From NCBI GenBank assembly GCA_000004695.1, contig CM000153.2, positions 4,416,001-4,480,000 of the forward strand: DNA of 64,000 nucleotides, read 5' to 3'. This document shows positions 30,182 through 33,100 of this stretch, piece after piece; positions within the stretch are counted from its first letter, which is position 1, and every line of letters begins with the position of its first letter. The position numbers were made by a program, and so were the translations under genes. Below the pieces are notes generated by a model that made no database searches, had not been told where the DNA came from, and saw only the letters and a list, made by a program, of their open reading frames with translations. The DNA comes from Dictyostelium discoideum. Lineage: Eukaryota.

Positions 30182-33100
30182 ATGTCATCAAAAAGAGGAA
30201 ATAGAGTAGTTTCAAGAGGTAGAGGTGGAAGAGGTAGAGGAGGTGGTAGGGAAACCACTAGAAGACATGTTAATATAAGAAGTGGAGGTGGTGATGCTAT
30301 GGGTGATGATGGTAATTACCCAAGAATATGTATAAGTAATTTACCAAGAACAGTAGATAGATCAGATTTAATGGAATTTTTAAAATCAAAATCATATCAA
30401 CCAAATTTAAATTTTAGAGGTGTATGTGGAGAGAAAAAAAAAAAAAAAAAAATAATATTCAGATACTAATTTTATTATTATTTTTATTATTGTTATAGTA
30501 TGAGTTTAAAAATACCAAACTTTTTTTAGGTGTTGAAGGTTCAGATAATATACCAGCATTAGTAGCATTAACAGGTATAAGATATGGAGGTGTAAAAGTA
30601 AGTTAATAGTTATTTGTTTTTTTTTTTTCACTCTTTAAACATTTTTATTAACTAAACTATTTATATTATAGCTCTTAGTTTCACAAGAAGATTCAAATTC
30701 AGTTAATACTAGAGTTGTTTTTAATGGTAATAAAGGAAATTCTCAAAAACAATTTAAAGATAGTCAAAACAAACTTTCAGCATCCAGACAATTAAAACAT
30801 ATAGAAGAACACATCACCAACACGTACACAAATAGCCCAAATAAAGAAGTTATAGATTTTTCATATTTACATTCAACCAAAGAATTGGACTTTAACGATA
30901 GCAAAACATTAAGACAAGTATTTCGTTTAATCTCTGAAAAATGTGAAAAGGTATACATCATCTATCAAATCTAGTATTTATATTCTCACCATTTGTTATC
31001 CATGCATTTGTTTTTTTTTTTTTTTTTTAAAAAAACTCTTCAATTGATCTAGTTATTCAAATCAATCAATCAACCAAATCAATCACAATCACATAATCAC
31101 AATTAAGAGGGGGGCAGAGGTGGTCAATATCACATATGTTTATTTTTTGACATAGTATTGGTGGTGGTGGTGATGATGATGATGATGATGAATGTTTGGT
31201 AGATGAATGGATGAGTGCCAATCAATCATTTTGCAAACCCAAGAGGGTGGTTAGTTTATGTTTTTCACACATAAAAACATAAAATTACAAACATCAATAT
31301 GTTCCGTTTTTACTAGTTTTACTTTGTGTTTTACATTGTTTAACAAACGACACTACAATCTTGGGTTTAGTGATTTTCCAACACACTACTTTTCAATCAA
31401 AATACCATTTTTTTTTTTTTTACCTTCAAATATAGTAACAGATAAGATAGAATCTTAAAATAATTAATAACAACCATCATAATATAAAACTAACATTTCT
31501 ATAAAAAAAAAAAAAAAAAAAAAAAAAAAAAAAAAAAAAAATTATCAAATTTTCTCATATATTTTCAAACAATAATAATTATTTATAACAATGACAACAA
31601 TAATCAATCATTCATTTAAATCAACTAATCATATTCAAATTTATATGATTTCAATATTATTTATTTGTTTGCTTGCTTATTGTTTGTATTTGTTGGTTTG
31701 TTTTTGATATTACTAATCCCATTTCTTTATAATTATTACTATTTACTCCTTTCTCTATCATTATTTTTTTTTTTTTTATTTTTTTCTTTCTCTATATATA
31801 TTTTTAATTATAGGCGATCACAGTGTCATTTTCACATAATAATATTAATTCATTATCATCATTCAAATTGATGATTAGGTTTTCATTGGATCATGTTATA
31901 AATTTTAATTTTGATTCAAATAAAATCTCTGATGTAAATGAATTGGATAGTCTTACTGATTTATCTTTAAGAGAATTAGTTTTTACAAATAATCCAATTG
32001 CTCAACTTCCAAATTATAGAATGTAGGTAGTTTTTAGTGAAAAAAAAAAAAAAACAAAGCAACATATTTAAGATAAATTTACTAATAAATTCATTTAAAT
32101 TATTATTATTATTATTATTTTATTTTACTTTTTTTTTTTTAGGGAAGTTGCAAGAAAATTTCCAGATTTATTAATTCTTGATGGTGTACCAATTGGACCA
32201 GAAGATTTTCCACCAAGTCCAATCCCACCATTAAGACCAAATTATTGTGATAGTCAAGAGAGACAACAATTTGCTTTTAGATTTTTAGAAAAATATTTCA
32301 CAACTTTTGATAAGTCTAGAGAAGAGATCATCAAGGCATACACTGAAGACTCAAAATTCTCTATGACCTTTATGGCTGATAGCAGTACCTTACCAATGCG
32401 TGGTTCTACTAAAGCTTATCAAAGAAATAATAGAAATTTAAAGAAGCCATCTGATGATAGTATGTTAAAATATAAAATAATAATAATAATATAATAATAA
32501 TAATAATAATAATAATAATAATAATAATAATAATAATAATAATAATAATAATAATAATAATAATAATAATAATAATAATAATAATAATATTTACTAATAA
32601 TTTACTACTTTTTTTTTTAAAAAAAAATTATTTATAGTTAAGAAAACTCAACTTTTATATTCAGGATATGATAATATTTATAACTTTTTCAAACTTTATC
32701 CAGTTACATCACATTATTTAGCTTCTTCTGTTATTGATACATTTTTGGCTCCTGGTTCACCAGTAAGTTTTTATATTTTAAAATTAAATAACTTGTTGTT
32801 TTTCCTTATTTAAATAATATATTAATATGGTTTTTCTTTTTAAAAAAAAAATAAAATAAAAACAAAAAAAAAAAAAAAGTTATTAAATGTTGTTATTCAT
32901 GGCCATTACCTTGAAACTGCATTTAATTCTAAAAGATCATATGATAGAACATTTATCTTGGCCCCATCACAACCTGGATCTGAAGCCGCAAAAGGTGGAT
33001 GGGAAGCAATTATATTGAATGAACAACTTCATGTAAGACCTTATGTTAGATTACCAAGATTGGAGCCAGTTACCCAACCAATCGCAAATATAACAATACC

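Follow-up and report, generated by a model that had tools for sequence, protein, structure and literature searches.

We analyzed a 64,000-nt stretch of the Dictyostelium discoideum genome (GenBank assembly GCA_000004695.1, contig CM000153.2, positions 4,416,001 to 4,480,000 of the forward strand; hereafter the window, in whose numbering all D. discoideum coordinates are given) that carries a gene for an mRNA export receptor of the NXF1/TAP/Mex67 type. The third intron of this gene (intron 3; 30951..31813, + strand, 863 nt, phase 0, GT-AG) is a genuine spliced intron whose position, large size, and weak 5′ splice site are conserved across Dictyostelia, and retention of this one intron was observed in transcripts of two distant lineages other than D. 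discoideum. A deeply conserved position and length, a donor that matches U1 poorly, and an early stop codon together indicate slow splicing and unproductive retention, and therefore suggest a retention-prone regulatory intron. We give slightly better than even odds (roughly 55%) to the reading that intron 3 is spliced inefficiently and thereby limits or tunes the amount of full-length export receptor; for D. discoideum itself, we infer the retention, the fate of the retained RNA, and a feedback by NXF1.

The boundaries of intron 3 were confirmed by two spliced RNA-seq contigs (L013 and L014; Logan, SRR24091722/3), which match the window with 97–100% identity, lack all seven introns of the gene, and join position 30950 exactly to 31814. 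Exon 3 ends in ...LISEKCEK at 30950 and exon 4 begins with AITVSFSHNN at 31814, which places the intron after residue 206, between GTATAC and TATAG. The initial annotation, made from the letters alone, had proposed an 863-nt phase-0 intron between these two peptides, and its coordinates were right. All seven junctions agree with the same contigs, so that its merged gene model with a long intron is correct as well. Rebuilt from three reading frames, the gene (30182..33348, +) comprises eight exons (30182-30421, 30499-30597, 30672-30950, 31814-32022, 32143-32459, 32638-32762, 32880-33236, and 33310-33348) and encodes 554 amino acids (aa). The protein contains an NXF-type NTF2-like domain (Pfam PF22602, NXF_NTF2, E 4.6e-36, residues 321-476) and a C-terminal TAP-C/UBA-like domain (PF03943, TAP_C, E 4.3e-15, residues 505-552). 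The leucine-rich repeat (LRR) model LRR_NXF1-5 matched residues 187-290 with 26.1 bits, under its cut-off of 30.5. RRM models found nothing in the D. discoideum protein; the N-terminal open reading frame (ORF) of a P. violaceum relative gave a faint RRM_9 match, and the N-terminal model of the AX4 reference is labeled "RRM domain-containing" in UniProt.

In AX4, the locus is annotated as two genes, DDB_G0286415 (255 aa) and DDB_G0286455 (383 aa). It is likewise split in several newer D. discoideum assemblies, in D. citrinum, in copy 1 of T. lacteum, and in A. subglobosum; in H. album, the gene model is mis-spliced. These annotations speak for two separate genes, with the interval as a spacer and promoter, or for an internal promoter giving rise to an N-terminally truncated NXF. 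The initial annotation had also allowed that its gene model was wrong here or that there were two genes. Yet L013 and L014 link the two halves exactly, which refutes two genes as the main product. In addition, the LRR match runs straight over the exon 3/exon 4 junction, as does the alignment of the joined protein with dictyostelid orthologues, which is free of gaps there. Each AX4 model, moreover, requires invented coding sequence from inside intron 3: the 255-aa model continues seven codons past the donor and then splices to a frame in the GC-rich core (..YIGGGGDDDDDDECLVDEW..), and the 383-aa model takes its start ATG from within the intron. We therefore consider separate genes or an internal promoter very improbable. 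The locus is one NXF1/TAP gene, the merged model is right, and the two-gene annotation of AX4 is wrong; a 554-aa protein (KAM9977565.1) is already the annotated model in another D. discoideum assembly. This corrects the annotation of a model organism, in which the only NXF1/TAP-type receptor found at the locus stands in AX4 as two hypothetical genes.

Within its own gene, intron 3 stands apart in length, composition, and splice signals. Its six siblings are 73-178 nt long, have 3.4-14.9% GC, and begin with GTAAGT, GTATGT, or GTAGGT. The GC content of intron 3 is 23.2% overall and 38-42% in 100-nt windows at 31101-31250. As noted initially, its donor is GTATAC (30951..30956, +), which departs from the GTAAGT consensus at +4, +5, and +6 and offers no G at +5 for pairing with U1 small nuclear RNA. 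The pyrimidine-rich tail seen at the outset is also present (T/C-rich at ~31733-31805) and leads to the 3′ splice site TATAG (31733..31813, +; acceptor ..TTAATTATAG, confirmed by L013/L014). If the intron is retained, the predicted early stop does follow 30950 closely: after seven codons (VYIIYQI), an in-frame TAG (30972..30974, +) would terminate a 213-aa product of exons 1-3, and a read-through-type model of this length (P0017) is present in NCBI annotations of other D. discoideum assemblies. The ORFs within intron 3 are short and not conserved, with indels between close species that are not multiples of three. A blastn search of the intron against the window gave no indication of a repeat or transposon origin; only low-complexity A/T and (GAT)n tracts matched, and the core is not repeated in the window. 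The sibling intron 5 (32460-32637) has 3% GC, consists almost entirely of an (ATA)n microsatellite, and measures 122-180 nt among sister species.

The intron lies at the identical codon boundary (..S[ED]K[CF]xK | A[ITV]T[VI]SF..) in all nine other dictyostelid loci examined: D. dimigraforme (L001, 1002 nt), D. citrinum (L017, 982 nt), D. purpureum (L002, 705 nt), P. violaceum (L018, 1065 nt), the two T. lacteum paralogues (L005/L016, 505/563 nt), H. album (L004, 983 nt), A. subglobosum (L006, 845 nt), and C. fasciculata (L003, 234 nt). In these nine loci, no other intron of the gene is as long where the gene model can be trusted (siblings 61-232 nt), and this includes the GC-richer genome of A. 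subglobosum. It is 3-13 times as long as its neighbors, in organisms with very short introns. The donor is equally consistent: G at +5 occurs in none of 11 orthologous donors (GTATAC, GTATAT, and GTATTA three times each, GTATTT and GTACAT once each) versus 48 of 55 (87%) among the sibling introns of these genes, and this holds in each of seven independent lineages. Since these lineages span all major dictyostelid groups, a chance pattern is very unlikely. The +5 counts thus reveal a conserved suboptimal splice signal, as expected for a regulated retained intron, and reading on into the intron meets an in-frame stop after 7-41 codons in each orthologue. Exon 3 ends with the lysine codon AAG in 10 of the 11 orthologues (AAA in T. 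lacteum copy 1), so that a G is kept at -1 of the weak donor. The two T. lacteum copies lie on different contigs and are 88-97% identical, the long intron included.

Transcript contigs from two other lineages carry this intron. Two JGI samples of a P. violaceum relative yielded 3.0-kb contigs ending in an A-run (L007 and L008; 78-100% nucleotide identity to the P. violaceum genome, 83-94% over most exons), which, relative to that genome, lack the seven other introns and contain this one whole (1107 nt; L007 746-1852, GTATAT to TATAG); the terminal A-run of L007 could be genomic. Contigs from three further runs (L009-L011) contain the last ~190 nt of the intron, from an (ATA)n repeat on, joined to spliced downstream exons. 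Such contigs, which begin within the intron, could be taken as a sign of the internal promoter considered above, but because all three start at the same (ATA)n repeat, they reflect an assembly break and not a transcription start. The second lineage is T. lacteum, in which a contig 100% identical to copy 2 (L015, ERR3252995) lacks introns 1 and 2 and includes the first 460 nt of this intron, up to a (CAA)n repeat. In the retained transcripts of both lineages, a stop codon follows after 14-35 codons. A metagenome scan for further orthologues returned only L007 again.

Much of the interior of the intron is variable. In a comparison of D. discoideum with D. citrinum and D. dimigraforme, 60% of all positions in the intron are invariant, compared with 26-67% in the interiors of other introns and ~44% in the upstream spacer. 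Embedded in this background are five blocks (A-E, all +) with at least 92% invariant positions over 25-50-nt windows among the three species. Block A (30951..30998), comprising the donor and ~45 nt downstream, is near-invariant, and a look-alike (CTTTCACCATTTATAT) was recognized by eye at the same place in D. purpureum. Block B (31040..31088) is C/A-rich (TCAATTGATCTAG TTATTCAAATCAATCAATCAACCAAATCAATCAC) and includes an AG at 31050/31051 after a run of 18 T (31011-31028). Block C (31183..31266; 84 nt with few substitutions and one 3-nt indel among the three species) comprises a hairpin (31187-31230) and the 5′ arm of a predicted helix (AAACCCAAGA at 31235-31244, GUGGU at 31247-31251), and block D (31340..31368) the 3′ arm (ACUAC at 31352-31356, UCUUGGGUUU at 31359-31368). 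Block E (31701..31747) contains UACUAAU (ACTAAT at 31713-31718), ~100 nt upstream of the acceptor, which from its sequence is the likely branch point of intron 3. Blocks C and D align with D. purpureum, whose intron also has look-alikes of A, B, and E in the same order, as judged by eye. Internal blocks are thus conserved in group 4 species. The best branch-point match lies 101-129 nt from the acceptor in the D. discoideum complex versus 25-55 nt in other dictyostelids, and in this complex, an expandable pyrimidine or (CT)n tract occupies the space up to the acceptor.

These comparisons also divide the GC-richer, complex strings that had drawn attention to the interval. All three are where they were reported, with GC of up to 42%: gggggcagaggtggtcaatatcac at 31110-31133, (ggt)4(gat)6 at 31160-31189, and caaacccaagagggtggttag at 31234-31254. 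Only the last falls in a conserved block and is kept, together with the remainder of blocks C and D, in group 4. The GC-rich part at 31109..31189 (+), made up of a G-rich string specific to D. discoideum (31109-31133) and the (GGT)4(GAT)6 tract, a variable microsatellite (31160-31189), has given way to other sequence or varies in D. citrinum and D. dimigraforme. The 3′ half of the intron is AT-rich and poorly conserved; it contains a run of 39 A (31503..31541, +), and the sister species have (ATA)n expansions instead.

Blocks C and D are predicted to form a long-range helix, in which AAACCCAAGA..GUGGU (31235-31251) pairs with ACUAC..UCUUGGGUUU (31352-31368), both by RNAalifold and by folding of single sequences. 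Its perfect 10-bp core stem was equalled in 1 of 60 dinucleotide shuffles. The folding energy of the 190-nt C-D domain (31183-31372) gave z = -2.5, equalled in 1 of 200 shuffles, and folding of the wider region 31090-31430 was no better than shuffles (z = -0.74 and +1.53 for the two strands). D. purpureum has a 14-bp version of the helix with two G-U pairs. Overall, the modeled C-D helix is plausible but unproven. A different 14-bp stem occurs in the T. lacteum intron, in which the 3′ arm differs between the two copies and pairing is kept. The introns of P. violaceum and its relative cannot be aligned with each other save for one island of ~70-98 nt (L007 1217-1313 / L018 3719-3811), which contains the splice-signal-like sequences AG|GTGAAT and ACTAACATTCT(T)TATAG. 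Deep conservation of a ACCCAAGA/TCTTGGGT motif was considered on the basis of suggestive Smith-Waterman matches (C. fasciculata, T. lacteum, and the minus strand of D. purpureum) and is not claimed; in an unbiased k-mer test, TTGGGT reached p = 7e-3 before correction for multiple tests.

A GC-richer core that is conserved in group 4 might also mean that the intron hosts a separately transcribed or processed non-coding RNA (ncRNA), either a small nucleolar RNA (snoRNA) or a small RNA driven by the Dictyostelium upstream sequence element (DUSE), on either strand of 31180-31420. In favor of this, AAACCCAAGA occurs on both strands (31235-31244 on +, 31359-31368 on -), a run of 14 T (31408-31421) could end Pol III transcription, and NXF1 has a genuine snoRNA gene, DdR8, 1.25 kb upstream. 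However, apart from DdR8, which is outside the gene, no Rfam family reached its gathering threshold in the window or in the nine orthologous loci, and a tRNA scan of the window was empty. In E-value mode, Rfam gave only sub-threshold chance matches in 30000-33000; those to C/D snoRNAs (31169-31230) scored 17-22 bits against gathering thresholds of 45-80 and arise because the (GAT)6 repeat mimics C boxes. We excluded a box C/D snoRNA, as RUGAUGA is found only within (GAT)6 and the CUGA D box (CTGA in DNA) is absent from both strands of the intron.

A DUSE-driven gene was rejected as well. The DUSE-dependent ncRNA genes of Dictyostelium (Class I RNAs and snRNAs) carry [AT]CCCA[AT]AA (PMC7919456, PMC3188802). 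The octamer ACCCAAGA of intron 3, which contains CCCA, resembles this element but has one mismatch to it. No exact DUSE exists in the intron, and the exact pattern is not enriched in the window. Unlike in DUSE genes, moreover, the two copies converge, which fits helix arms better than promoters, and there is no match to Rfam or Class I RNAs. Nor is there a conserved RNA body ~60 nt downstream; the sequence ~63 nt downstream of either copy (~31290-31340) is the least conserved part, variable and with indels in the three close species. An intron-hosted snoRNA or other ncRNA, one of the initial proposals, thus finds no support and appears unlikely. DdR8 itself is a box C/D snoRNA (RF01576, 123.8 bits) at 28849-28936 (-), ~1.25 kb upstream of the NXF1 start codon, with counterparts at the corresponding place in D. 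citrinum (L017 1144-1231) and D. dimigraforme (L001 4690-4777). It has no obvious DUSE upstream and is preceded by an intron-like stretch (GTATGT...CAAG). A snoU18 match in coding exon 4 (31926-32009, +; 25.7 bits versus a gathering threshold of 47, E 0.53) is most likely due to chance.

The AG of block B raises a further alternative, namely a poison exon or alternative site, for instance with an acceptor at 31050/31051 after the T18 run and a GC-richer segment reaching to GGTTAGT (31250-31256). The stretch 31051-31300 is indeed exon-like (31-42% GC) between T-rich and AT-rich flanks. The motif CTAG|TTATT is kept in the three close species and, by eye, in D. purpureum. One gene model in D. cf. 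discoideum (P0019, ...SEKCEK|LFKSINQPNQSQSHNHN*) takes this acceptor, although it is possibly purely ab initio. Against these hints, none of the contigs is spliced internally: the intron sequence runs without a break in L007, L008, and L015 and is wholly missing from L013 and L014. The alternative exon suggested initially was therefore not seen in any transcript contig, and we regard it as even less likely than a hosted ncRNA.

More serious competition for a retention-prone regulatory intron comes from a passive one, which has become oversized by the accumulation of insertions and microsatellites. Its blocks would then be ordinary splicing aids (an intronic enhancer, the branch-point region, and a helix that helps to define a long intron), and its retention a by-product of slow splicing without regulatory use. 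Much of the length is indeed variable and of low complexity (A39, (ATA)n, (CT)n, and (GGT/GAT)n), conservation of the interior does not reach past group 4, 234 nt are enough in C. fasciculata, and the D. discoideum contigs are fully spliced. However, without selection for inefficiency, one would hardly expect a weak donor in 11 of 11 orthologues when 87% of sibling donors have G at +5. A passive intron also accounts poorly for two further findings: all species examined, A. subglobosum included, have their longest intron of the gene here, and full-length contigs from several samples retain this intron but no other. In none of the 11 introns was there significant "zipper" complementarity of the 5′ part with the stretch that precedes the branch point. 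We thus see a passive intron as possible, yet clearly the less probable of the two. The regulatory element, which had been listed initially among several options, is favored by the conserved position, size, and weak donor, by the group 4 blocks, and by retention in two other species.

If intron 3 is regulatory, the weak donor, the excess length, and, in the D. discoideum group, the distant branch point would leave a fraction of transcripts unspliced at this intron alone. Ribosomes on the retained mRNA would meet a stop after 7 codons (7-41 in other species). The retained RNA may therefore yield at most the 213-aa N-terminal fragment, with the RGG-rich and RNA-binding region and no complete LRR, NTF2-like, or UBA domain, or it may be subject to decay, and either fate would lower the output of complete receptor. 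The cis-elements that adjust or monitor the balance between spliced and retained RNA are probably the conserved internal blocks; in group 4 species, the foremost candidate is the 190-nt domain 31183-31372, closed by the predicted C-D helix. The export machinery itself might bind these blocks, which would establish a negative feedback.

Several observations weigh against this proposal. The search for a retained-intron transcript of D. discoideum found none, and the only contigs in which the species is represented (two runs) are fully spliced. When the 213-aa read-through product served as query in a second homologue search, only a further split annotation appeared, and no retention ORF from D. 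discoideum. The proportion of spliced and retained RNA cannot be quantified from assembled contigs, and the retained ones could partly represent slow-splicing nuclear pre-mRNA. The 234-nt intron of C. fasciculata indicates that great length is not obligatory, and the T. lacteum paralogues are alike everywhere and hence uninformative on selection. RNAalifold found no compensatory changes in the C-D helix; because both arms are simply conserved, an RNA structure is indistinguishable from a DNA-level motif. Outside group 4, the internal blocks were undetectable, as nhmmer profiles of blocks C and D matched nothing there; conservation of elements inside the intron is confined to individual lineages. 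Across the seven lineages, only C/A-rich k-mers are common, with borderline significance; CCAACAA, found in six of seven (p = 7e-6), is of microsatellite type, and C/A-rich tracts also occur elsewhere in the window. Finally, autoregulation by NXF1 through the C-D domain is suggested by analogy with the export-factor introns described below.

Regulated retained introns have been documented in several export-factor genes, including NXF1 intron 10 with its constitutive transport element (CTE; PMC4338338), YRA1 (PMC2864733), and SUS1 (PMC3201863). In vertebrates, NXF1 intron 10 and its CTE yield "small Nxf1" (PMC4338338, PMC5170612). Intron 3 resembles this case in several respects. The gene family is the same, and one long intron is kept in polyadenylated mRNA from which the others are removed (here in contigs of the relatives). 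Read-through adds a few intron-encoded codons before a stop, the otherwise fast-evolving intron has a conserved island closer to its 5′ than to its 3′ splice site, and a 5′-splice-site-like sequence (GGTTAGT in D. discoideum) adjoins the conserved element. In contrast to intron 10, the Dictyostelium intron interrupts the coding sequence after residue 206, early in the LRR match (187-290), and dictyostelid retention was seen only in relatives of D. discoideum. No CTE-like sequence emerged from the comparison with Rfam families (E up to 10). By position, intron 3 is therefore not a member of the NXF1-CTE system. The domain 31183-31372 might nevertheless be a functional analogue of the CTE, that is, an NXF1-binding export element through which abundant NXF1 would export its own unspliced transcript before the weak donor is used. 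We view this specific version, built on the vertebrate example, as doubtful. If it were true, export receptors would be autoregulated by one dedicated retained intron in both Amoebozoa and vertebrates, reflecting either convergence or an ancient principle of NXF genes.

The yeast YRA1 intron contains several modular elements, and its unspliced RNA is exported by Mex67 and undergoes Edc3-dependent decay (PMC2864733, which cites Dong et al. 2007). Both genes encode mRNA export factors with an intron that is abnormally long for the genome (here 863 versus 73-178 nt, with the same pattern in nine other loci), that has several modular elements, and whose unspliced RNA meets early stops. Splicing is deliberately inefficient in YRA1, and in Dictyostelium the donor and the retention in relatives suggest the same. 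The weak signals of YRA1 are the branch point and the intron size and not the donor. YRA1 encodes an adaptor of the Aly/REF family, whereas the Dictyostelium gene encodes the receptor. Export by Mex67 and Edc3-dependent decay were demonstrated in yeast, whereas the Dictyostelium case is known from sequence and contigs. SUS1 (PMC3201863, PMC4691836) is likewise an export or mRNA-biogenesis factor gene in which non-canonical splice signals lead to regulated retention and intronic RNA structure modulates expression; unlike here, its introns are short, its protein is unrelated, and experiments in yeast have established how it is regulated. One study reportedly found an excess of Mex67 to be detrimental in yeast (PMC12828223), which would give a reason for controlling the dosage of NXF1.

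In the literature library that we searched, no paper dealt with this locus or with the regulation of NXF1 in Dictyostelium. Outside fungi and animals, an export-factor gene with a dedicated intron prone to retention, here conserved in all major dictyostelid groups, appears not to have been described before. If the ratio of spliced to retained RNA proves to be regulated, Dictyostelium would provide a genetically tractable short-intron system for understanding why export-factor genes repeatedly evolve such introns, and in which one could also ask whether the export receptor senses its own pre-mRNA.

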